Assembly: GCA_003614675.1 (NCBI GenBank)
Contig: ML002353.1
Location: 1-39,318, forward strand
From: Dimargaris cristalligena
Taxonomy: Eukaryota
DNA length: 39,318 bases
Direction: 5' to 3'
The notes below the pieces were generated by a model that searched no databases, was not told where the DNA came from, and worked only from the letters and a program-made list of their open reading frames with translations. Numbering within the stretch: position 1 is the first letter of the stretch; each line of letters starts with the position of its first letter. Position numbers and translations under genes: made by a program. This document shows, one piece after another, positions 7,207-34,743 of the stretch.

Positions 7207-10101
7207 TTAATGCTGTTTACATAGCATATTGCCCTGGGATACCTGAAATTTACAGAGGCCCATCTCCAGCGCCATACCCACAAACGCCGCGATCGTAATG
7301 CCCATCGAGCCTCCCACACCGCATACCCCCATAGAGAACTCCCGGTGAGTAGAGGGGACGTCCTTGGACACGTTAAAATACGTATTAACATAAGTGCTTC
7401 CTAAAACCCGAAAATGATTAATGGCCCAACAAGGGATCCGGAATATTCCATAGTTAGTAGTTGACTTATTACCTCTCAATAAAACAAACCCGCGATCAAA
7501 AGTGGTGGAGGGGGGGGGGCTTTAGTCGCCACCGGAGCTATATCTAGATATTCACATACTGCGTATCACTTACCACCCAAGAGTCCTTCCCAGAAGATAA
7601 CGGCAAATACCAGGTAGACCGACGGCATCCACCCAAATAATGCCTGGCTCAGGAGTAGCAACATGGTGAGTACTTGCATTGAGCTGGGTATCCAGACCCG
7701 TTGAATATGTAAAATCGAAACGCTGGACCGACTAATGAATACGCCAGCCTGATACAGAGCTGTTGGTTTACCCCGCGCCGCGAGTATCCCCGAATTAAAT
7801 CGACAGTGTACAGTCATTACCGGGCCAAAATACAGTCACAGTGGGGAGATTAGCAATCCGAAAGTACAAAGTCCCGGGGGACTCTCCTAGCGGGCCGCTT
7901 TAGCCCTGGCCGGGTCACTATTCTCATGCGATGGGCGTAACACACTCGACTAGCCGCACTTGGCGACCCTCCATGGGCATAACGATCCATCATACAGGAC
8001 TTGAGGGACATTCATCTCCAACAAAACCTACCTTGGTAGTAAATGTAGTGGTCCGTCATTTTCTGAAACGGTGTCTTGTTCAAGTTAAAGAGAATGGTGG
8101 GGGTGATGCCCGAGTTAGTCAAATATTGGGCCCAGTATACCACAAAGAGAGGTAAAACGTAGGGCACAATGAGCAGTTTGACCAACTGGACCCGCTCCCG
8201 GAGCGTGGCAGCCTCCCTGACTGGCCACTTATCGGCACGAAGCGCGGACTCGCCCAGCTCTGACTCCGCCGGAGATGAAGGTGTGTATTTCTCCTTTTGA
8301 ATCGGTAACAATCCACTGTCGGCGGAACCCAACTGCGCGGGCTCCATCCACGCCTTCTGAGCCTCCATAAATTCCTTCTGAAGCTTCATGGTGGCGGACG
8401 AGATACGTAAATAGAAAAAATAGACCACCAGCATCACGGGGGGGAGTGCGGCAACGATGCACAGCGTGATGGTAAGGGACAGCCGAGCCCACACCGTAAA
8501 TGCGAGGAATAGGAAGGACCCCAAAAGGCCCGAGCCGCCAGTACCCGACGACCACGCCGACACGCTGGATGACTCGTAATACGATGTCATCATAAGGAAG
8601 GTTAGTTCCCCTAATCCACTACCAACCGAGCAGATCATAACCCCTGACATGGCAGATTTAAGGAGAGAAGTGAGAAATTAGAGGATTAATAATTCGCTCC
8701 TAGAGGCCCAGCTGGATGAAGGTGTTATCCGCATCCTTTAGGGCGATGTGGACAGCGGTACAGTTTATACCATTTACTGGCCATTAATGGATAGCCAAGA
8801 GTGAAATAAGCCATTAAATAATCTCTGAAGAGTGTCTAAAACTATGTGGTAAGGGCGCGGCGATAGTACCAAGTGAACTTACCCATGAGTCGCAGAGCGA
8901 CATTATCAATCCAGGCGACCACCTGTAGGATAGAGTAGCGAAGGTATACCAATTTTAAATGAAGGTTATAGGAGTACCGTTATAATATCCGAATTATTAG
9001 TTATGGCCACTGGCACTTTTTTTAAATATTATATATATATTAATAGATAATAGAGTATGTGATAGAATGAGCTCCTCAGACCAAATAATAATAATATCAG
9101 TACCACTGGATAATATTGGTTCTTACCAGAAGTGCACCTAGTGACGCTACCACAACAGCGATAATCCGGGTACTTCGAGGGAACAGGATCAATATTACGT
9201 TGGATATGTGCAAATAGTACTCGTTGGTAAATTCAATGAAGCGCGCTTGTAAATATTTACAATACAATGCGATGCTAGTTAGTATGGGAGTGCCCGATAA
9301 CGGCCCTTACAAAAAGCGGATACTGGTGTGATTCTAGGCACTCGGTAATCTATCCAAATAACTCAACCTTACCTGTAGGGAATGCGGTGAATAAAGTAAG
9401 GGGCAAAAATGCTCACCAGTGAAGAGGGTACGATGTTGGCCGCCAGCACAACTGACTACATTCCGAGAATAAAAAGCAAAGGGAAGGGGTTTACATTAAG
9501 GGCACTATAAGAACGGGGAGAAGAGGTGGAGGAGGGTAGGGGCCAATTATCTAATTTATCAGCAGGCCACCGTATATAAATATGCATCGAAACCCAGGTT
9601 TAAATACTCAAGCACCGACTAATCGCTTTCTAGCCACTTACTACTGGAATATTACTGTTCGATTCGAGAATTCGCTGAGCGGCCGAGAGAAAGATGGCAT
9701 AGACCAAATTATTGATAATACCTGATTATAGGGAGAGACAAGAGTGCATGTGGAGGGGAGATCGAGGTCAAAATAGGGACAATTCACTCCCACTAAAGAT
9801 ATCCGGCGAAGTTCACGTACACGACGGAGATTCAAGGGTCGGCCAAGAACTTGACTTACCGCAAATGAAAAAGGCGGCCCTAATAGCCATTGTGACGGGA
9901 AGCCGCCCTGTCGATATGGATTGGTACGAGGGAATAAGGAGTAGGGTAGCAGCCGAGAGGGCATAGTGAGAAATTGTATATACAAACGAGACTAGTGACG
10001 GTCGGTCCATATGAGGGCATTGTCTCCAAAAGTAAAATCACAGTCATCGGTTTATTCTTACCGGCACTATCAAATACATCCGAGCCTAGGTCTGACTTCA
10101 T
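7207..10101 (-). CDS. BTN1: Battenin / CLN3-family vacuolar membrane protein, 442 aa, 9 exons
   Basis: Exons 10101-10062, 9907-9860, 9721-9642, 9455-9373, 9172-9127, 8922-8883, 8643-8032, 7759-7574, 7400-7207, all in phase. Motifs AFFICGIINNLVYAIFLSAA, GLGELTFL, AWSSGTGGSG, LYQAGVFISRSS, WEGLLGGSTYVNT, REFSMG. Confidence 0.93.
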
Positions 10102-11739: not shown

Positions 11740-11767
11740 ATTATTATTATTATTATTATTATTATTA
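11740..11767. repeat. (ATT)n microsatellite
   Basis: About 9 perfect ATT units downstream of the coiled-coil gene. Confidence 0.9.
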
Positions 11768-11874: not shown

Positions 11875-12703
11875 TCATAAGAAACCAGAGCCATCTAATT
11901 CCTGATTTAGGTTCTGGCTCTCAGGCAGGGGTGGTTTAGAGACCTGCCCGCGGGGATGGTTCTGGGACAGGTAGCTGAGGACCCTCAGGCCAACGGAGTG
12001 GGGCGGACGGAAAAATGGCCTGAAGGGAGCAGGCATGGTTTGGGTGGGGCTCCCCGGGCAGCTGGGCAGACCCGATGGGCTAGGCGTGGACTGGGGCGAG
12101 GTCAGGATCTTGTTGAGGGGTTCTGGCGGCGGGGTAGTCAGGCGGGTTTCTTGTAAAAGCATATTGAGGCCCACCTGGGGGGATTGGGAGCCTAGGCTAT
12201 CGGTGCGCGACGCAGTGATAGATCGCAGCCCACTTAGTAACGGGAAGTTGGAAGAGCCCGTTTCAGGCACCTCGAGGAAGTGAAACAAAAGGGAAAGATG
12301 ATATACATTTTTTGAAGGTTATCATACTGCTGAAATAGGGACCACATAAGGCACGTGGGGGGGGGGTGATATAGCAATGCCCCTCGGGCAGGAAAGGGAC
12401 GGGGGAAGCGATATAATAACAAATATGAAATGTGCCTACCTCGACAGGGGGGCCATTTATAAGCGAAAGTGGGGGGAGGAAGGACGTATCCGAGGAGTTG
12501 GACCGCATAGCGTGCAGTTCCAGTAGGCCCTCGATGGTGGCCTGGGCCTCATCGAGCAAATGGCGGTAGTTAACGACATCTTCCTGTAAAGCAGAATCGA
12601 TATCGGCCCGGCTCTGCTGCAATTCAATGACCTCGTCCCTCAGGATATCGAGATTGGTGCGGGCCTATGGTATATATAGCGGAGAGACAGGGCAGTTGAG
12701 GAT

Positions 12704-12740
<37 letters not shown>

Positions 12741-13756
12741 TGGGATTGGGGTTAGAATAACGTAAAAGCGGGTAGGATTCGATTCGTTAGGGGGGACAGC
12801 GACTAAGCAGTGGGATAGACGGCAATTTACCATATTCAGGCTCTCTTGGAGCGAACGGATGGTGTGGGAAAAGATATTGCCTTGGTTAGAGCTCTTATCG
12901 TGGAGATGACCAAGTTGGGTTCGAGTATCAGCGATATTGACGCGCTCCCGCTCGAGGGTTTCCTCAACCAGATCTGCAGCAAGTGAGGGGGAATATATAT
13001 ATATATATATTATAATAATGGAGAGAGTTAGCTGGGGCCGTGCAATAGGATGCCAACAAGTAAGGCCAGGTTGGAAAAGGGGATGTATATGGATAATAAA
13101 AGGGCGGCTTACGCAGTTTTTGTAGGGCCTTGAGACTGCTATGGGTAGTTTTGCCGTGGGACTCCTGAATCTCGGTAAAGTGGGTAGAAAGCGAGCGCAT
13201 TTCTTCCCGGAGGGTCTTGTTCTCGTCACGCAGGTCACGGATAATGCGCTCGAAATTATGGTTAAGACTGCCCTGGCTCTGGAGGGAATCTTCTAGTAGC
13301 TGGAGGCGAATCGTTACATCGTCAATTTGGTAGGATTTGTCGAGAAACGACCGCCGGTCGTGCTCGGCTTTGCTCAACTAAAGGGTTAGAGTTGAGGATA
13401 ATTGATGGCGGGATACAATTGGGGTTAGTGGCAGGGGCAGGGTCCACAGACTGCGTGACTGGGGTCACCAGGTCGAGAGAGACAGAGAGAGAGAGTGTGT
13501 GTGTGTGTGTGTGGTTCGGAATGAAGGGGTCAGGGAGAGGCTTGGGCCCTCGGATAATTACCCTGTCGACAAGCTCCTGTTCGAATTGGGAGGTTTGGTC
13601 CAAACGGGTTTGAAGTGCGTGGTTCTGTTCGGCCAGACTAAGCCCGATCTGTGCGGCCATTTCGAGTTCCCGCTCTTTGTTAGTCAGGGCCTCGCGTAAT
13701 TCGACGGCCTCGTCGAACCCGGCAGGCGATCGTGTCGAGGGATGCTCCATGGTCAT
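11875..13756 (-). CDS. Coiled-coil protein with N-terminal CC1 box (HAP1_N / TRAK / BICD-like), ~407 aa, 5 exons
   Basis: Exons 13756-13562, 13377-13113, 12973-12831, 12664-12440, 12270-11875 (last acceptor is GAG after a strong pyrimidine tract). LTNKERELEMAAQIGLSLAEQNHAL, ~230 aa of heptads ending NYRHLLDEAQATIEGL, then a Pro/Ser-rich tail. Confidence 0.8.
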
Positions 13757-23681: not shown

Positions 23682-24851
23682 CTAGACGAATAATTCATGG
23701 ACGAGATTTTGGCATTGGGCCTGGCTCATGAATTCGGAATTAATGATGGCATTACAAGCAAAGATGGTCAACCGGGGTTCCTTGGTGAAGACCCATATCC
23801 GACCGTTTAGGCCAATGGCAACATCCAGGGGCATTTTGGAGCCTAGGAGCGAAAGGATGGGTGTGTTGGGGTTGAGAAGTCTGGCGAAGGAGGAATGTGG
23901 AATCGGGGGTACGCATGCATGGTGGGGGGGGTTAATGAATGAGTTACTTCTACTACGATACCCTCTATCCCGTATCTTTTACTTGACCAAGTCTGTCTAG
24001 TAGAGTGGTACTATAGTGGTAAGCAGTCTACAGTGCGAAATTGGGTTGTTAAGAAAAGGGGGTGGGGGGACCTACCTCTGGCAAAGTTGAAGCGAGCAGT
24101 TCACGACCAGACCTTCCTTTAATTCGCCGTAGCCGTCGGCTTTCCCGGAGTTGGAGTTATAGCATTCCATTTCGGGTTCCATATCTTTGTTGGCGATGGT
24201 CAGTCGACCGTAAACGACGGTGCCGACCTAGAATATGAGGGGGAATGAAGAGCAGTATAGTATAATATAGTATATACTAGTATATTTAGAATGAAGGACG
24301 GGGTGAGAGGGGCATGTATAAAGCCATTATGTAGTTAAGAAGAAGAAGGGCCGGTTGATCCAGTGGTTATTTTACAATTCATTGGGGACTTACGGCGAGG
24401 TTGGGGCGGTTGCGCTTGGTAGCGCCTTCGAAGGCCAGTATGGGCAGTAGGGCGGAGTAGGCACTTCCGATATCCACCTTGTAGTATTCGGCAGAACGGG
24501 CAATGATGGTTCCCACTACAGGTTCGCCGGTGGCGGGTACGTACTGAAGAGACAGGTCGAGGGTATGGGTGTGAGGAGGGTTATGGTTATAGAGGGTTAG
24601 GATATAATGCTTGGTAGAGAGAGGGGTTCTATAGTTCAATCGGGTTTGGTTAGAATTGGACTTACCCGTTTCTTGCTGCCGGTGATCCACCAGCTGTTGC
24701 CGGAGGAATTGTTGGCCAAATAGCCGGCCTGGACGGCCTGGATTCCGGCTTCGGTCTGGAGCAGACCGGGGCCCAGGCGCACGACCTGCTTGGGGTCCGT
24801 GGCCGTAACGGGGGCGGAGTCGCCCGGAAGGACAATGGTGGCGGGGGACAT
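23682..24851 (-). CDS. RRP40: Exosome cap subunit Rrp40 (EXOSC3), 228 aa, 4 exons
   Basis: Exons 24851-24666, 24543-24394, 24227-24076, 23880-23682. Motifs IVLPGD, RLGPGL, KKRYVPATGEPVVG, AFEGATKRNRPNL, KDMEPEMEC, GKADGYGELK, AIGLNGRIWV. Confidence 0.95.
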
Positions 24852-25502
24852 GGTGAGAGTGGGACGGATGCGTTAGGTGGAGGGAGAAACAGGCAGGAGA
24901 GGGTGGCAATGGCAATGGCAATGGAGAGGAAGGTGCATTTACTTCAGGTCTAGTCACTTTCGCCCATTCTCTCTCTCTTTTACTCTATTTTTTTTGTAGA
25001 GGGAAGGAGCCAGTTAGGGTTCTGCCAGCCTGAGGGCAGTGGTGGATGGCGGAGTGATCATCTGCCCATCACGTGAGCCGCCGGGGCTTGGGCTTGGGCG
25101 CGAATATGGCTCAATGGACCTCGGTGTTAGCTGCGGGGAGTGTATATATAATAGATGAGAGATGGAGTGAACGAACGGGGGTAGGAGTATCGCCGATACT
25201 GCTACGTTCACCATAGACGATAATACCCTAAAACAGCCAATAGAGCCGCCGTGGTCAAGCGGGTAACCCCGACCAAGGAAGGAGAGAGGGAAAGGGGCTC
25301 TTTCTTTGTACCTCTCTATCTCTCTGTATATGCGTGCAACCTTGACTTCCCCAGCCGTCTCGCCTCTATGCATACACCTTCCTCTCTTCTTTACTTCACC
25401 CTACTTTACTTCTCTTCTCTTGTATTCCTTCATCCCGTTCTGTGCCGCTTTCCCTCCATCATTCGACCTTATTTACTTCCTTAAGTCTCCTTATTGTCCA
25501 CC

Positions 25503-26480
25503 ATGCCTCCGCCGCCACCACACCCCGACGACAACTTCAACTGCAAGCTGATGGACAGCTTTGCCATATTTATCCAGTCCCTGCTGGGCATCGTGGCTAT
25601 TTCCACGCTGTTTCTCAAACGCCAACACGAGGTTCCCCAGCGTCCGTTTCTGATATGGTTCTTCGACGTTAGCAAACAGGCCTCCGGCTCCGCCATGGTC
25701 CACGGCCTCAACCTATTCGCCGCCTACTTTTCTGGTAAGTCTTCCCACGAGGACTCCAACCCTTGCATATGGTACTTTATGAACCTTGTGCTTGATACCA
25801 CCTTTGGCGTCTACATTCTGTATCTCTACCTCAAGCTGATAAATGTCATTGTCCAGCGGCTCGGCATCGAAAACATGGACTCCGGCGACTACGGCTCCCC
25901 GCCCCGCCCCATCAACTGGGTCAAGCAGTCCATTGCCTTCTTCATGGCCCTCCTGTCCATGAAAGTCACCGTCATGATTGCCCTGGCCCTCTTCCCGTTC
26001 CTCGCCATTGTCGGCCGCATGTTCTTGGCCCCCTTCCAGCACCTGGGCGACCCCCGCATCCAGATTGTCATGGTCATGCTGGTCGTGCCCTTGGTCATGA
26101 ACATTATCCAATTCTGGCTCATTGACCATGTTATCAAGCAAAAACAACCCTCCAAAATTTACATCCCCGACCACGAATCTCCCTCCGACGAGAGCGAGAC
26201 CTTCTTGACCGTCGTATCCGACCACGACTGTGACGATGACCGGGACTCCCTCCCGTACCCCTCCGGCTCGTCCCATGCTTCCGATGATTATCAGGGGGGC
26301 GATGGCCGTCTCGGCGCTCGGCCTGGCTCCTCTAAATTCGCCCAACGGCCCCGTCCGTGGAGCCACACCCACTTTGACGTCAACCATGTGCATGCCTCCC
26401 GTAGTCTTTCCCGGAGCGGGTCGACGGATGATTTCTCCGTGACTGCTTACAGCCGTTTCGAGATGAACAAGTCCCCTTGA
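25503..26480 (+). CDS. STIMATE/TMEM110 (yeast YPL162C-like) multi-pass membrane protein, 325 aa, intronless
   Basis: ATG at 25503. Motifs CKLMDSFAIFIQ, KRQHEVPQRPFLIWFFDVSKQ, NPCIWYFMNLVLDTTFG, SGDYGSPP, VMLVVPLVMNIIQFWLIDHVIK. Confidence 0.88.
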   Translation: MPPPPPHPDDNFNCKLMDSFAIFIQSLLGIVAISTLFLKRQHEVPQRPFLIWFFDVSKQASGSAMVHGLNLFAAYFSGKSSHEDSNPCIWYFMNLVLDTTFGVYILYLYLKLINVIVQRLGIENMDSGDYGSPPRPINWVKQSIAFFMALLSMKVTVMIALALFPFLAIVGRMFLAPFQHLGDPRIQIVMVMLVVPLVMNIIQFWLIDHVIKQKQPSKIYIPDHESPSDESETFLTVVSDHDCDDDRDSLPYPSGSSHASDDYQGGDGRLGARPGSSKFAQRPRPWSHTHFDVNHVHASRSLSRSGSTDDFSVTAYSRFEMNKSP

Positions 26481-28077: not shown

Positions 28078-30522
28078 ATGAATATGATGAAACTTAAACA
28101 AGTAAGTGTACCATTTGCCCAGGCTATTAGGCCAGTCCACAACCCCCCCATGCCCATTATCTCAATAAAACTAGCCGTCACATTTACAATAGGCGCTGAC
28201 GATGGCTTCCCACCACAACCAGTCATTAAATACATATGAATATATATATATACCTCCTGATTGACCATTCTTTTTGCCACCCCCTGTTTATATCCCACCA
28301 ATCCAATGTCGCCCTAACCCTCAGTGGACGGGTGAGAAGATGGGTATGAATGAAAAGACCAAGGAGTCGGACGAGTTCACCGCGCTTCAGGAAGTCACTG
28401 ATGCCAAAAAAGGCGCCATCGAAGGGCTCGAGTCGGCCGTCATCCTGTACATCGCCCAAACGGGTAGGTTGATTGATTAGTTACCCCGTGAACCACCACC
28501 TCCCCGCACCTGGCCATTATGCCTGCGAATATTGGAAGTTTTTGATTAGTCAATGGTAGTAAATTGGCTACCCTAGGCCACTAAAATTACAAAGAACCTA
28601 ATGATGTACATCTGCCGTCCCCTCCTTTCGCCTCTACAGAGAAAAAGAAGGGCAGTACCGAGGGTTCCAAGACCAAACTCACCCCCATCGAGAACCTCGG
28701 CGCTAGTATGGTGTCTTTCGGTAACTCCCTCGGCGACCGATCACTCCTGGGGCAGTCTATGGTGAAAATGGGCGAGTGCCAGGAAAAAATTGCGCGGTCC
28801 CTCGAAGAATTTGTAAGTATTTCTATAGGCCCGCGCAGGGCCTTTTTATGTGGAATTCGCTCACCCCTACCTCGTTTTATTTTGGTTGGATTCCTCCACC
28901 CGCGGGCACACCTCAATGTCGGATTCTCTAGAGCTGGCCGGTTCTTATTCCCCTCCCCATGTATATATTCTCTATCGCCGAATATTCCCATATTAATACC
29001 ATGGCTATTATCGACAACCCCTTAGATCCATGAAATCAAAGACCCCTTTGCACGCAATATCAACGAGCTTAAGCGGCAGCTGGATGAATACCACCACCTG
29101 AAGAAGAAAATCAAGTCACGTCGACTAGACTATGATTCCAAGGCCACTCGCGTACGCAGTAGCAAAAAGGAAAAACCCGAACTGGAAGAGGAGGCCCTGG
29201 CGGCCCAAATTAAATACGAAGATACCTACGACGACGTCCTCAACCGCATGATTCAGTTGGAGGACGATGAGGACATGTATCTGGAGGACCTCAGCTCCTT
29301 CTTCCAGTCTGAACTGGCCTACCACCGTAAAGCAGTCGCCACCCTCGAGGAAATCGCTGAGTGGATGGAAAGTAGCACCCAAATGAAACGTAAGAGCGCC
29401 CGCGAGCGTTTCAACATCGAAGTACCCGAACGCCGTCGGAACCACAGTCCCTACAGCGAAGTGGGTGGATCCATTCGACGTACTTCGACCTACCGCCAAC
29501 CGGGCTCCGAACGTTCCCCTAGTCAGCGGCCCGCCAGACGACCCTACGACCCCGATGTTCAGGACGATGACCGGTCCGATACCTACAGCCAGGCTCCGAG
29601 TCGATTAGACGATGACTATGAGGATGACGCCCGTAGTTTCCGTACCACCGGTTCCCGCTCCCGCAGCCGGGCTGGTTCAAGCAACCGGCGACCAAGCGTG
29701 TATTCGACGGCTTCGGGCCATGAGACGGACCCCTTCGACCGGCCTGCACCACCTAGCCAGCCCCGTGAAAAGGAGCCAGTTCGGGAGCCGGCCCGTCCCC
29801 CGCCCCCACCACGAGCCGCCCCACCACGCCCGAAGTACCATAAGGCCGTTTACGAATTCGACAGCGGGGCGACTGATGAATTGGCTTTCCAAGAAGGGGA
29901 CCTTATCGCCATCGTGGAGGAGCTCCCGGACGAAGGTTGGTGGATGGGCGAAATGACTGATCCGCGCACCGGCCGGGTTACCAAGGGGCTGTTCCCGGTG
30001 AATTACACCGAGGAGTGTGCCGAAGAAGAACTCCCTCCCTATGTGGATGAGGAGCCCGAGGTCCGACCGGCACTACCATCCCGGGCCCCATCGTTTGCCC
30101 AACCTTCCCCGTCCACCTCGTCTTTGTTTTACGATACAGCGTCACCTAGTGTTGTGTCCACCGCCAGTTACGCTAGCCCAGTCGTACCCTCTGTGCCCCA
30201 ATTTACCCGATCTTCACCCGTAGCCGCTGCTGCCGCCGCCGCCGCTTCGCGGGCTAATGTAGTGCCTCAGACGGCCATCTCGGCAGCAGGTCACCATCGA
30301 GCCCCTCCCCCGCCCCCACCAGCATCGGTATTGGCCGCTGCGGTGCCTGCTTCCTCTGCTGGTATGGTAAAGGCAACCAGAGTCGCCGCCGCGGTCAATC
30401 GACCCACAGGCGGGGGACCGTCCGCATCAGCGGATGCAGCTTGTTCGACTTGTGGATGCGACGACTACTCTCCCAACGTATTCCGTAAGAATTATTGTAA
30501 CAACTGCTTTCACTGCCATTAG
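28078..30522 (+). CDS. Endophilin-like N-BAR + SH3 protein with C-terminal Cys/His motif, 610 aa, 4 exons
   Basis: Exons 28078-28101, 28325-28463, 28640-28812, 29026-30522. N-terminus MNMMKLKQWTGEKMG..KTKESDEF, BAR signature KKKIKSRRLDYDSK, SH3 KAVYEFDSGATDELAFQEGDLI..GWWMG..GLFPVNY. Confidence 0.88.
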
Positions 30523-33319: not shown

Positions 33320-34743
33320 ATGCGTTTTGCAGCTGCGCCCAAATGCCCCCGGTGCGGTAAATCAGTCTTCGTGGCCGAGCAGGTAAGTCGACCAGGCCCT
33401 TGAGCCCCCTCCTACCTTCGCTGTCCCCAGTCAGCCTCACTAAACCTACATGGCTACCCTTGAGGTAAATAGGGCTGTCGACTGGCCCCACCCTGCACTC
33501 CCCAACCAGCCCACCTGACTCATAGTTCCCGATAATTGACATGTCCCTTCTTTTCCCAACCACCTTAACCAGGTCATTGGTCCCAACGGGCCTTGGCATC
33601 GGGCCTGTCTGACCTGCGCCCAGTGCAACGTTCGATTAGACGCCAATCGATTGCTGGACAGCGACGGTGAGGCCTACTGCAAACTCTGCCACCATAAATT
33701 GTTTGGCCCCCGGGGCTATAATCTAGTGGGCGGCACTGCCCCCGCCAGTCCCGTCCCCAGCGACACACGCATCGCCTCCGAAATCCGATCCCGCTCTAAC
33801 TCGCGGGCCCTGGGGGCGTCCAACCCCCAGCTATACGTTGACGCCCGGCGGTCCCCGTCCATTCCCCCCACGCCTTCTCGTGAATTGAATACCCCGACCA
33901 GTTCAACCTTCTCGTCCTGGGGCTACCACCAGTCCAAACCCGTTGGGCCCCTGACCCCAGTGGAAACCACCCCGACTGACCCCGCAACCGCTCCTTCGCC
34001 CGATCGACCACCGTGGACCCCTACCACCAGTGAACCCGAGTCGGAAGACCAAGCCCCGGCCCGTTCCCCCGCGGCACCGCGCTTCCCCACTGCGGCCACT
34101 GCTCCGCAACCACCGAAATCTTCGACGGAGATCGGGGCAACTAAAAGCATCTCTCTTGTGGGGAGTGGCGGCATCACCCCCGGAGGCTGGACCTCTGGGT
34201 CGTCCTATGTGCCACGGAAACTTAACTTGAATATCAATAGCGACCAATGTGCTAAATGTCACAAGGTGGTCTACGCGGCCGAATCAGTAAGTTTGTTATT
34301 ATGGTTGTCCGCCATGCCACTAACCCAATTTTTTTTCAAGGGATTTATCTACATCTCATTTGATTCTCTGGGCAGGAGTTCTTACTTTAGTATCTTATAG
34401 ACGGCCGGAGTTGAGTAATCGATGTATCATTTGATAAGCAACGCGGGGAGATAATGGGCCGATATATCCTATTGTCCAGCTCCATAACTCTTTTTAACTA
34501 ATTCATCATTCACATTCACCATTCGACTGATTTACTACTACCCAGATTAACGGCGTGGGCAAAAAATACCACCGCTCTTGCTTTAAATGCACCGAGTGCA
34601 AGGGAACCCTCTCGGCCTCCAACCTTACCGAGAACGACAACTTACCCTACTGCAAACGGTGTTATGCCCGTCTCTTTGGACCTAAAGGGTATGGCTTTGC
34701 CGGTGGGGCTGCCTTTCTGACTACCGAAGGGTCCGCCCGCTGA
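33320..34743 (+). CDS. Cysteine- and glycine-rich protein (CSRP/CRP-like) with two LIM domains, 324 aa, 3 exons
   Basis: Exons 33320-33382, 33573-34286, 34546-34743. LIM1 CPRCGKSVFVAEQ..WHRACLTCAQC..YCKLCHHKLFGPRGY; LIM2 CAKCHKVVYAAE..YHRSCFKCTEC..YCKRCYARLFGPKGYGFAGGA. Confidence 0.92.

Follow-up and report, generated by a model that had tools for sequence, protein, structure and literature searches.

The locus described here raises the question whether fungi possess a motor adaptor related to TRAK, Milton and HAP1. TRAK1, TRAK2 and Milton are mitochondrial adaptors of animals which serve both kinesin-1 and dynein and are built from HAP1_N and Milton domains. In those parts of the literature that we consulted, TRAK, Milton and HAP1 are regarded as proteins of animals, and the dynein activating adaptor that has been characterised in filamentous fungi is Hook. 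Our full-text searches found no paper on a fungal HAP1_N- or TRAK-like protein and none that says explicitly that fungi lack TRAK. The gene in question lies in a window of 39,318 nucleotides, the whole stretch analysed, from contig ML002353.1 of the early-diverging fungus Dimargaris cristalligena (assembly GCA_003614675.1). An initial annotation made from the letters alone proposed that it encodes an ancestral opisthokont adaptor with a CC1 box, the motif through which adaptors of this kind bind the dynein light intermediate chain (LIC). Overall we find this interpretation partly supported. The reading that we favour, with moderate confidence, is that the protein belongs to the HAP1_N (TRAK/Milton/HAP1) family of motor adaptors with a CC1 box, as a minimal and divergent representative in fungi; it probably serves dynein, and perhaps kinesin-1 too, as a cargo adaptor.

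Gene model and predicted protein

Positions 11875-13756 of the minus strand form a gene of five exons, whose 407-residue product is translated without an internal stop and is letter for letter the NCBI hypothetical protein H4R33_000753 of D. cristalligena. All four introns are bounded by GT...AG. The gene is real and intact. Exon 1 (13562..13756, minus strand, as are all features below) carries the start codon, a short disordered N-terminus and the CC1-box region (aa 1-65). Exon 2 (13113..13377, with GT-AG borders) encodes aa 66-153 and the first base of codon 154, and exon 3 (12831..12973) the rest of that codon and aa 155-201. The end of the coiled coil and the start of the tail are found in exon 4 (12440..12664, aa 202-276), and the remainder of the Pro/Ser-rich disordered tail in exon 5 (11875..12270, aa 277-407 and the stop codon), the translation of which has no Pfam match at E<=10.

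In the AlphaFold2 model residues 1-15 are non-helical and residues 16-254 form a single uninterrupted helix with a pLDDT mostly above 90. A heptad pattern runs through the whole of this rod of about 240 residues. Behind it follows the tail, composed of 17% Pro and 16% Ser, with a pLDDT below 50 and one short helix at residues 369-379. The initial annotation had described a coiled coil reaching from the CC1 box to NYRHLLDEAQATIEGL, followed by PPLSL and a disordered tail, and the model agrees with this, with NYRHLLDEAQATIEGL at residues 233-248 and PPLSL at 265-269. The modelled helix also lies in the range expected of CC1-box adaptors, in which the coiled coil spans roughly 200-300 residues from the LIC site to the pointed-end site; a reference length of about 260 residues is reported (PMC5379953). 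A Foldseek search of the model against the PDB gave no match at E<=0.001, which is expected for a model that is a single long helix, and structure matches in the ESM Atlas were generic helical proteins throughout.

Relationship to the HAP1_N family

The top Pfam match of the D. cristalligena protein is HAP1_N (PF04849), with 28.1 bits and an E-value of 1.5e-6, and aligns aa 23-230 to profile positions 72-297 of 307. The score is below the gathering score of the family, which is 33.9 bits. HAP1_N is the top match for three of the four Dimargaritales orthologues (E 1.5e-6, 4e-6 and 6.1e-5) and ranks third for the D. xerosporica orthologue (E 5.1e-3). Exon 1 alone scores 28.6 bits (E 1e-6, profile positions 71-103), at least as much as the full-length protein, and therefore the signal at the Pfam level comes from the CC1-box region only. 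Among the 21 fungal members that we aligned, none reaches the gathering score and only 5 match HAP1_N at E<=0.01. The four Dimargaritales orthologues have no match at E<=1 to the Milton domain (PF12448) or to BicD, and exon 1 has none to BicD at E<=10. Precomputed Pfam tags (PF04849.19) are already attached to the D. cristalligena protein and two relatives, and one of these two is named 'HAP1 N-terminal domain-containing' in UniRef.

Sub-threshold matches of comparable strength among the 21 members were found to GAS (5/21) and SHE3 (3/21). The latter raises the possibility of a She3-like adaptor for class V myosin and mRNA transport, and UniRef indeed calls the Tieghemiomyces orthologue 'SWI5-dependent HO expression protein 3'. 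The three SHE3 matches at E<=0.01, the best at 0.0014, fall well short of the cut-off, however, and do not surpass those to other coiled-coil families. SHE3 (PF17078) is absent at E<=1 for the four Dimargaritales orthologues, for which HAP1_N is consistently stronger. We have rejected a She3 identity on these grounds and regard it as very improbable.

More specific information comes from an exhaustive search of 1.84 billion proteins with a profile of the four Dimargaritales sequences, which returned 30 matches at E<=1e-3. Twenty-four of them are fungal and come from the Dimargaritales, the Kickxellales, Basidiobolus and, in two cases, the Mucorales, Absidia being represented among the latter. 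The remaining six are all HAP1_N proteins above the Pfam cut-off (75-268 bits), one of them also with a Milton domain, and no other CC1-box family (BicD, BICDR or Spindly) appears among the 30. A comparison of the 21 fungal with 7 animal sequences by hhalign gave a probability of 96.8% and an E-value of 2e-10 over 221 collinear columns, against a probability of 1-2% and a score of 24-26 for reversed controls. Without the CC1-box region the comparison is weaker, with a score of 41.1 and a probability of 54.6%; the reversed control scored 27.1, and none of 60 heptad-block shuffles reached the real score (mean 14.2, maximum 20.2). By BLASTP the protein aligns with a nematode protein containing HAP1_N and Milton domains over 289 columns (59.7 bits, 26% identity). 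Hhalign and BLASTP recover the likeness that the initial annotation had noted at the two ends of the domain, and at the C-terminal end it leans on one nematode sequence, because only this one of the 7 animal rows covers that end.

Searches against PDB sequences give a less uniform picture. With exon 1 as a phmmer query, six of the seven matches at E<=10 belong to dynein adaptors of the CC1-box type, in each of which the aligned region is the CC1 box, TRAK2 being first (E 0.24) and Spindly nearly tied with it (E 0.29). The 21-sequence profile places generic coiled coils first (keratin, E 5.4e-5), gives Spindly at E 0.014 and BICDR1 at E 0.033, and does not have vertebrate TRAK2 (9dgv_a) among the best 60 of its 226 matches. 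The four-sequence profile does not match TRAK2 at E<=1.

Two alternatives have to be weighed against these searches. The family may be a separate one in which only the LIC-binding box is shared with TRAK, BICD and Spindly, whether the box arose by convergence or all CC1-box adaptors go back to a very remote common ancestor; its members would still be dynein adaptors. This would account for a Pfam score that lies wholly within the CC1-box region, for exon 1 matching TRAK2 and Spindly almost equally and for the absence of a Milton domain. It would also fit the nearest ESM Atlas clusters of aa 15-130, which are HAP1_N, two Bicaudal-D and, at rank 29, Spindly (scores below 0.9; leads only). It does not sit well with HAP1_N proteins being the sole matches outside fungi in the exhaustive search, with a collinear signal that persists beyond the CC1 box well above the shuffled maximum, or with the length of the alignment to the nematode protein, and we consider it unlikely. 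The second alternative is a structural or regulatory coiled coil without a motor link, for example at the spindle pole body, septum or cortex, in which the N-terminal box would be a dimerisation trigger or the site of an unrelated partner. That the fungal profile prefers keratin, tropomyosin and myosin rod over TRAK2, and that Foldseek found nothing specific in the PDB, would suit such a protein. The reciprocal retrieval of HAP1_N proteins is specific, however, and some 30 residues at the N-terminus share about 40% identity or more with TRAK sequences of animals (24/57 in one comparison), so that we give this alternative little weight too.

The gene model, the existence of the family, its conservation pattern and its profile-level relationship to HAP1_N are established by these sequence comparisons, and it is on them that the reading as a HAP1_N family member is built.

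The CC1 box

The core of the CC1 box, L31-N45, with the pattern L-x2-A34-A35-x2-G38-x6-N45, lies at 13622..13666 and is the putative site of LIC helix 1. Residues 24-48 read as first annotated and are found at 13687-13613, with the AAxxG core (A34-G38) at 13657-13643. L31, A34, A35, G38 and N45 are invariant in the 21 fungal sequences and also in a joint alignment of 9 fungi and 4 animals, and the pattern L-x2-AA-x2-G-x6-N is present in all 30 fungal relatives examined and in 7/7 animal HAP1_N proteins. When residues 1-256 were shuffled 100000 times, AAxxG by itself arose in 2589 cases and the extended pattern in 18; the box of the D. cristalligena protein is, as judged from such comparisons, more than chance. 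The annotation had named in advance two outcomes that would speak against it, a loss of AAxxG among orthologues and the lack of a HAP1_N or BICD profile match. What we find is that AAxxG is conserved in 30/30 relatives and invariant in the alignment, and that HAP1_N is the top Pfam match, below the cut-off, and BicD gives no match at E<=1 in the four Dimargaritales orthologues.

Spindly and BICD2 are reported to need the alanines of the CC1 box for binding LIC1 (PMC5379953), and the first coiled coil of TRAK1 to bind LIC1-C via helix 1 (PMC6336354). By analogy with these two reports, AAxxG is a putative binding site for LIC helix 1 in the fungal protein also. In TRAK the contacts to dynein-dynactin are described as the CC1 box, a heavy-chain site and a Spindly motif (bioRxiv 10.64898/2026.04.25.720804).

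Further conserved sites along the rod and in the tail

Conservation within the fungal family peaks at aa 31-50, 71-90, 231-250 and 361-380, and the middle of the rod is less conserved. Such a layout would be expected for a LIC site, a heavy-chain site, a pointed-end region and a cargo site. This match to adaptor topography counts further against a coiled coil without a motor link.

The second peak contains the block D72-D85 (13318..13359), which reads D-R-R-x-F-L-D...Q-x-D-D and has nearly invariant D72 and D84 in the 21-sequence alignment. Its position corresponds to heavy-chain-binding site 1 and the acidic patch of TRAK, the site being described as QxxH/Y with the acidic patch about 20 residues further on (bioRxiv 10.64898/2026.04.25.720804). 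The acidic D84-D85 is likewise about 20 residues beyond the position aligned with QxxH, and BLASTP pairs KAEH (68-71) with nematode LRH(D). QxxH is not conserved among the fungal orthologues aligned: D. cristalligena has R-L-S-K / K-A-E-H at the corresponding positions, D. verticillata R-L-R-H and the Kickxellales Q-R-L-x.

A block at aa 106-128 (13189..13257), reading …L-R-D-E-N-x-x-L-R-E-E…, is seen in the joint alignment and is where the hhalign match without the CC1 box begins. The kinesin site of TRAK is reported at aa 205-260 (PMC13545989), and we infer that the block corresponds to the start of this kinesin-1 segment, the mapping being approximate. This raises the question whether the protein is a HAP1_N relative that, without activating dynein, serves mainly kinesin-1 or another motor as an adaptor or scaffold, like Drosophila Milton, which is reported to drive kinesin transport only (PMC13545989). 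The alignment of aa 106-128 and the lack of conservation of the heavy-chain site and the Spindly motif could be explained in this way. Milton however reportedly lacks the CC1-box alanines (PMC13545989), while these are invariant in every fungal sequence examined, which points to selection on the CC1-box site, and within fungi no part of the protein is less conserved than the mid-rod, to which the putative kinesin segment belongs. A predominantly kinesin-type adaptor seems improbable to us for these reasons, and an adaptor with a dynein function remains the reading that we prefer.

The third peak is the end of the coiled coil, Y234-M254 (12506..12568), in which Y234 and L238 are nearly invariant across the 21 sequences. 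Its counterpart is the C-terminal end of HAP1_N, and its partner in hhalign is the nematode block y-a-e-v-m-a-m-l-r-d-a-e-e-e-l. Dynactin p25 is the partner of the Spindly motif. No Spindly motif (L-phi-x-E-phi or J-x-x-E-phi) is conserved after the rod or in the tail in the 21-sequence alignment, and the initial annotation was correct that a canonical one is not evident. Within Y234-M254, LLDEA (L237-A241) fits L-phi-x-E-phi in D. cristalligena only, E240 being E, Q or D among orthologues, and it is aligned with the end of HAP1_N and not with LAAEI 374-378 of TRAK1.

At the other end of the protein, an N-terminal regulatory helix of the type found at aa 85-106 of TRAK, which is described as folding onto the CC1 box (PMC13545989), is absent. 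The alignment to HAP1_N begins at profile position 72, and with only 33 residues preceding A34 there is no room for such a helix.

The fourth peak is the C-terminal motif P365-R383 (11950..12006). It includes a hydrophobic helix, V369-Q379 (V-G-L-R-V-L-S-Y-L-S-Q), modelled by AlphaFold2 at low confidence, and G370 is invariant in 21/21 fungal sequences. We suggest this motif as a candidate cargo- or membrane-binding element.

Taken as a HAP1_N-type adaptor, the protein might work as follows. Two chains would form a parallel coiled coil in which A34-A35-x-x-G38, by homology, would provide a hydrophobic cleft for helix 1 of the dynein LIC. The rod would lie along the dynactin filament and place D72-D85 near the dynein heavy-chain site and Y234-M254 near the pointed end. 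A segment at about aa 106-160 may, more speculatively, bind the kinesin-1 stalk as in TRAK, and cargo would be attached through the C-terminal motif at aa 365-383. Since there is neither a fold-back helix nor a Milton domain, the adaptor may be constitutively 'open' and have a different link to its cargo.

Comparison with known adaptors

The closest likeness is to TRAK and Milton. The CC1-box pattern is near-identical and its flanks match D-x-E-A-[LV]-x-x-L-L-x-x-K-E-[KR]-[DE]-L-E-[LM]. In hhalign and BLASTP the coiled coil can be matched collinearly to the end of HAP1_N, with a weaker signal outside the CC1-box region. The second coiled-coil segment opens with an [ED]-N-x-x-L block, and the long rod is followed by a disordered C-terminal half. 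The fungal protein is, on the other hand, less than half the size and is without the Milton domain, the N-terminal 70 or so profile positions and the regulatory fold-back helix. Its coiled coil is one helix (16-254) with no break, QxxH and an LAAEI-type Spindly motif are not conserved, the C-terminal motif is another one, and the Pfam score is below the cut-off. What can be kept of the proposal of a TRAK/HAP1-like adaptor is therefore the relationship, in that the exhaustive profile search yields, at E<=1e-3, only HAP1_N proteins outside fungi; the sub-cut-off score, the missing Milton domain and the unconserved QxxH and Spindly motifs weaken it.

HAP1 itself is like the fungal protein in having a CC1 box and a HAP1_N-type coiled coil without a Milton domain. 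This is a likeness of described architecture, the lack of the Milton domain in HAP1 being taken from a published account (PMC5064798). The same source describes HAP1 as derived from a TRAK-like protein by an adaptation in eutherians, and the absence of Milton from both would thus not reflect shared ancestry. BICD2, BICDR1 and Spindly also carry a CC1 box with AAxxG, close to the N-terminal end of their long coiled coils, and there are weak matches centred on the CC1 box to Spindly (8arf_B) and BICDR1 (6f1t). They differ in that the fungal protein has no Pfam BicD match at E<=1 and no conserved Spindly motif, and that none of them was retrieved by the exhaustive search. HookA and other Hook proteins are comparable in that they, too, are coiled-coil proteins of fungi for which a role in linking cargo to dynein-dynactin is proposed. 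Hook is described as binding LIC not with a CC1 box but with its globular Hook domain (bioRxiv 10.64898/2026.04.25.720804), and the Pfam search found no Hook domain in the D. cristalligena protein.

Taxonomic distribution and ancestry

The tree of the family, which has no root and contains no more than 3 animal rows, follows fungal taxonomy and splits animals from fungi with a support of 100/99. The 'ancestral opisthokont' origin put forward in the initial annotation fits this split, and the missing root and few animal rows leave it at that. In a word-index search with the 21-sequence profile, which reached its ceiling of 8000 candidates, relatives came at least from, and among the matches listed only from, Kickxellomycotina, a result with no bearing on Dikarya or chytrids. 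The close CC1-box match suggests that the TRAK/HAP1 adaptor family is older than animals.

A more far-reaching reading, which we put forward tentatively and think possible rather than probable, is that early-diverging fungi (Kickxellomycotina, Basidiobolus and Mucorales) keep a stripped-down, ancestor-like TRAK as a second class of dynein activating adaptor beside Hook. With the same reservation, this adaptor would couple an organelle to dynein-dynactin, and perhaps to kinesin-1, without an autoinhibitory helix. The cargo could possibly be mitochondria held via Gem1/Miro, or be reached through a membrane-binding C-terminal helix. On the same tentative reading the family would predate the split of animals and fungi and would, in Dikarya, have disappeared or changed too far to be recognised.

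If true, the conservation of a HAP1_N-like protein with a CC1 box across three lineages of zygomycetes would place the beginnings of the adaptor family before the animal-fungal split and give fungi a second candidate adaptor class. A natural 'minimal TRAK' with a rod of about 250 residues, and with neither regulatory helix nor Milton domain, would also help to define which elements are sufficient to engage dynein (and kinesin), and would raise the question of the microtubule cargoes in these little-studied fungi. For now the finding is of limited value, since all of it is drawn from comparing sequences and some members already bear a HAP1_N label in automated databases.

Miro-binding motifs insert a Leu or Phe into the ELF pocket of Miro and are, according to the authors describing them, not predictable from sequence (PMC10897228). 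A motif of this kind is not claimed for the D. cristalligena gene, since the Dimargaris protein is without the one seen in Kickxellales. The tail motif of the Kickxellales proteins, G-E-S-L-[GD]-D-I-F-A, resembles the Miro-pocket motifs FADI and LADI given in the same source (PMC10897228).

Gene and product

The gene lies on the minus strand in five exons (13756-13562, 13377-13113, 12973-12831, 12664-12440 and 12270-11875) separated by GT...AG introns. Its 407 aa translation is identical to the NCBI 'hypothetical protein H4R33_000753' of Dimargaris cristalligena (Kickxellomycota, order Dimargaritales). The residues quoted by the initial annotation are all in place, namely the CC1 box A34-A35-Q-I-G38 (bases 13657-13643, minus strand) within residues 24-48, NYRHLLDEAQATIEGL at residues 233-248 and PPLSL at residues 265-269. 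It had also described a coiled coil followed by a disordered tail, and this agrees with an AlphaFold2 model built on a 21-sequence alignment, which predicts one unbroken helix over residues 16-254, with pLDDT mostly >90, and disorder past residue 254, with a short helix at 369-379. The tail of the window protein contains 17% Pro and 16% Ser.

Family assignment

Our comparisons make it likely, with good confidence, that the fungal protein is homologous to HAP1_N, and they point to a homology that peaks at the CC1 box and is weak but real along the rod. HAP1_N is the best Pfam match of the window protein (E 1.5e-6; its residues 23-230 align to profile positions 72-297 of 307), and the runner-up family reaches only E 0.047. 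The profile match expected from the proposed TRAK/Milton/HAP1-like identity is thus the top one, but its 28.1 bits stay under the gathering score of 33.9 bits, which no fungal member reaches. Three further Dimargaritales orthologues and Basidiobolus also match HAP1_N, but only 5/21 fungal members do so at E<=0.01. The Pfam signal is confined to the CC1-box region, because exon 1 alone scores 28.6 bits. The Pfam scan found no Milton domain in the window protein.

A profile of the four Dimargaritales orthologues, searched against all 1.84 billion representative proteins (E<=1e-3), gave 30 matches, which were sorted by name and Pfam. The fungal part consists of three query members, Dispira, 17 Kickxellales, Basidiobolus and two Mucorales (Absidia and Halteromyces). 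The other six are proteins with HAP1_N far over the cut-off (75-268 bits); nematodes contribute three of them, the name of one is 'trafficking kinesin-binding protein 1', and in one a Milton domain accompanies HAP1_N. BicD, BICDR, Spindly or any other family is not represented among the 30. The matches extend well beyond the CC1 box, for example from profile position 25 to 239 against residues 40-260 of the nematode HAP1_N and Milton protein P0024.

Two annotations in the family deserve comment. The Tieghemiomyces parasiticus orthologue is named 'SWI5-dependent HO expression protein 3' in UniRef, but our scans do not support a She3 identity, as Pfam SHE3 is absent from its matches at E<=1; the label was probably carried over too freely from one coiled-coil protein to another. 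The 1309 aa Halteromyces radiatus relative is annotated as a fusion to a 3'-5' exonuclease domain (PF01612, aa 1066-1251), which is probably a merged gene model and not a true fusion.

Profile-profile comparison of 21 fungal with seven animal sequences gave a probability of 96.8% (E 2e-10) over 221 collinear columns, from the CC1 box through to the block closing HAP1_N, where fungal E-Y-x-a-m-L-x-e-h-E-q-t-I-r pairs with nematode y-a-e-v-m-a-m-l-r-d-a-e-e-e-l-r. Reversing the alignment on either side left a probability of 1-2% and a score of 24-26. Once the CC1 box and everything before it are removed, the score is 41.1 (probability 54.6%, E 1.2e-4); the reversed template scores 27.1, and 60 heptad-block shuffles of the template average 14.2 (s.d. 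2.2, maximum 20.2). The earlier suggestion that both ends of HAP1_N resemble the window protein holds in this comparison, with the far end covered by one animal row only, P0024. Aligned pairwise by BLASTP, the window protein and P0024 are 26% identical over 289 columns (59.7 bits).

By contrast, searches of PDB sequences were weak. The four-sequence profile found nothing significant, with TRAK2 absent at E<=1. The 21-sequence profile placed generic coiled coils on top (keratin 5.4e-5), with Spindly at 0.014 and BICDR1 at 0.033, and TRAK2 was absent from the best 60 of 226 matches. TRAK2 (9dgv_a) is present in the library, since the animal profile matches it at 1.3e-46. Exon 1 alone matched seven chains at E<=10, six of them CC1-box adaptors aligned at their boxes, with TRAK2 first (0.24), Spindly next (0.29) and then BICDR1. 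Vertebrate TRAK is thus linked only faintly to the fungal family, and invertebrate TRAK-like proteins more clearly.

Conservation of the CC1 box

AAxxG alone occurs in 2.6% of rod shuffles, and the extended pattern L-x2-AA-x2-G-x6-N in 18/100000. Conservation is the more telling argument that the motif is more than chance. L31, A34, A35, G38, N45 and G370 are the sole invariant columns among 21 orthologues from Dimargaritales, Kickxellales, Basidiobolus and Absidia, which share 18-52% identity with the window protein. AAxxG is thus kept in orthologues, and the extended pattern is found in 30/30 fungal sequences examined (from a set of 60 proteins, with near-identical members of a cluster left aside) and in 7/7 animal HAP1_N proteins. 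The upstream flank is also alike, fungal D-P-E-A-L-R-A-L-L-A-D-K-E-R-E-L-E-M-A-A resembling animal D-[VL]-E-A-V-T-R-L-L-x-E-K-E-K-D-L-E-L-A-A, and 24/57 positions across the region are identical in one fungal-animal alignment.

Comparison with TRAK and possible function

The elements described for TRAK1 include the CC1 box, a coiled-coil break, pointed-end contacts, heavy-chain site 1 (QxxH 163-166 plus an acidic patch, 183-188) and a Spindly motif, LAAEI 374-378, with the updated consensus J-x-x-E-phi (bioRxiv 10.64898/2026.04.25.720804). The CC1-box alanines of TRAK are given as A129/A130, with an N-terminal helix (85-106) that folds on the box and gates LIC binding and a kinesin-1 stalk site at aa 205-260; fly Milton is described as being without these alanines and its transport as kinesin-only (PMC13545989).

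Conservation in the fungal family peaks at aa 31-50, 71-90, 231-250 and 361-380, with the mid-rod less conserved. The CC1 box makes up the first peak; with just 33 residues ahead of A34, the protein has no room for a TRAK-type regulatory helix. The second, D72-R-R-x-F-L-D...Q-x-D84-D85, coincides in position with heavy-chain site 1 of TRAK. The TRAK QxxH aligns with R-L-S-K / K-A-E-H in the window protein, R-L-R-H in D. verticillata and Q-R-L-x in Kickxellales, and the acidic pair D84-D85 lies ~20 residues past these positions in the fungal family; this is no match, but the likeness is suggestive. Fungal L-R-D-E-N-x-x-L-R-E-E (aa 113-123) matches animal L-E-x-[ED]-N-x-x-L, which by approximate mapping starts the TRAK kinesin-site segment.

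The third peak closes the rod and is matched to the end of HAP1_N, at a position before that of the TRAK1 Spindly motif. In this species LLDEA (237-241) conforms to L-phi-x-E-phi, but other orthologues have Q or D in place of its Glu, and no conserved motif of this kind lies further on in the tail, in keeping with the original remark that a canonical Spindly motif is not evident. A C-terminal motif specific to the family, P-P-x-x-V-G-L-R-V-L-x-Y-L-S, accounts for the fourth peak; it has an invariant Gly and reads H-V-G-L-G-W-G-N-Y-W in Kickxellales.

MAFFT places V-P-N-H-I-L-A-K-L-L-R-R-S of P0024 (aa ~369-383) under fungal P-P-[HN]-[SK]-V-G-L-R-V-L-x-Y-L-S (aa 365-379), each 125-132 residues past the end-of-HAP1_N block; with one animal sequence compared, this likeness may be due to chance.

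Most probably, the window protein would form a rod of two parallel chains, in which four parts would do the work. By analogy with Spindly, BICD2 and TRAK1, for which CC1-box binding of LIC helix 1 is established (PMC5379953, PMC6336354), its CC1 box would receive LIC helix 1. At ~240 residues the rod would have a length suited to the dynactin filament; the stretch ahead of the Spindly motif averages ~260 residues in adaptors (PMC5379953). Two further conserved blocks would touch the dynein heavy chain and the pointed end, and the C-terminal motif is a candidate cargo binder. Judging from sequence, we consider LIC binding fairly probable, lean slightly against true activation of processive motility, regard kinesin-1 binding as unlikely and a Miro/mitochondrial cargo as quite improbable.

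Kickxellales tails (e.g. P0033, P0007 and P0041) share G-E-S-L-[GD]-D-I-F-A, R-K-A-A-S-V-I-G and R-P-R-x-S-S-F-S, in alignment columns ~445-455 (window protein aa ~296-301). The first is similar to the FADI/LADI motifs (Leu/Phe-x-Asp-Ile), whose insertion in the Miro ELF pocket has been reported (PMC10897228). At this site the Dimargaris protein reads only D-S-L-G.

Distribution and descent

An unrooted maximum-likelihood tree of the rod (19 fungal and three animal rows, three rows being of deviant composition) separates animals from fungi (support 100/99) and recovers Dimargaritales (98/99), Kickxellales (99/97) and Basidiobolus with Absidia (95/91). It fits vertical descent inside fungi, with nothing in it pointing to a recent animal-to-fungus transfer. 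Dikarya and chytrids are absent from the 30 reverse-search matches, which given the narrow profile is not proof of absence; the ESM Atlas offers, as leads only, two clusters, one of Mucoromycota with 62 members (score 0.91) and one of Basidiomycota (0.89).

Some members already carry a HAP1_N label in the protein collection's precomputed tags and in UniRef. Our full-text literature search found no description of a fungal HAP1_N/TRAK-like protein, and a term search of PMC5064798, the single study of HAP1_N evolution that it brought up, returned no mention of fungi. The family would represent a known CC1-box/HAP1_N module, in stripped-down architecture, in a kingdom where the module has not been studied.

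Genomic context

Long open frames in the window match Pfam LRR repeats (1-2358), CLN3 (battenin; 8012-8677) and the RRP40 S1 domain (24379-24984) on the minus strand, and STIMATE (25485-26480), BAR plus SH3 (amphiphysin/Rvs167-like; 29026-30522) and LIM (33540-34400) on the plus strand. None of these six neighbours has an evident tie to the adaptor gene; the locus is an ordinary eukaryotic one and its context is uninformative for this gene. In the minus-strand reading, simple repeats are seen in intron 1 ((CA)n(CT)n, 13475-13513), intron 2 ((TA)n, 12993-13013) and intron 3 ((CT)n, 12703-12740), and (AAT)n lies in the 3' flank at 11741-11766, ~110 bases past the stop codon.
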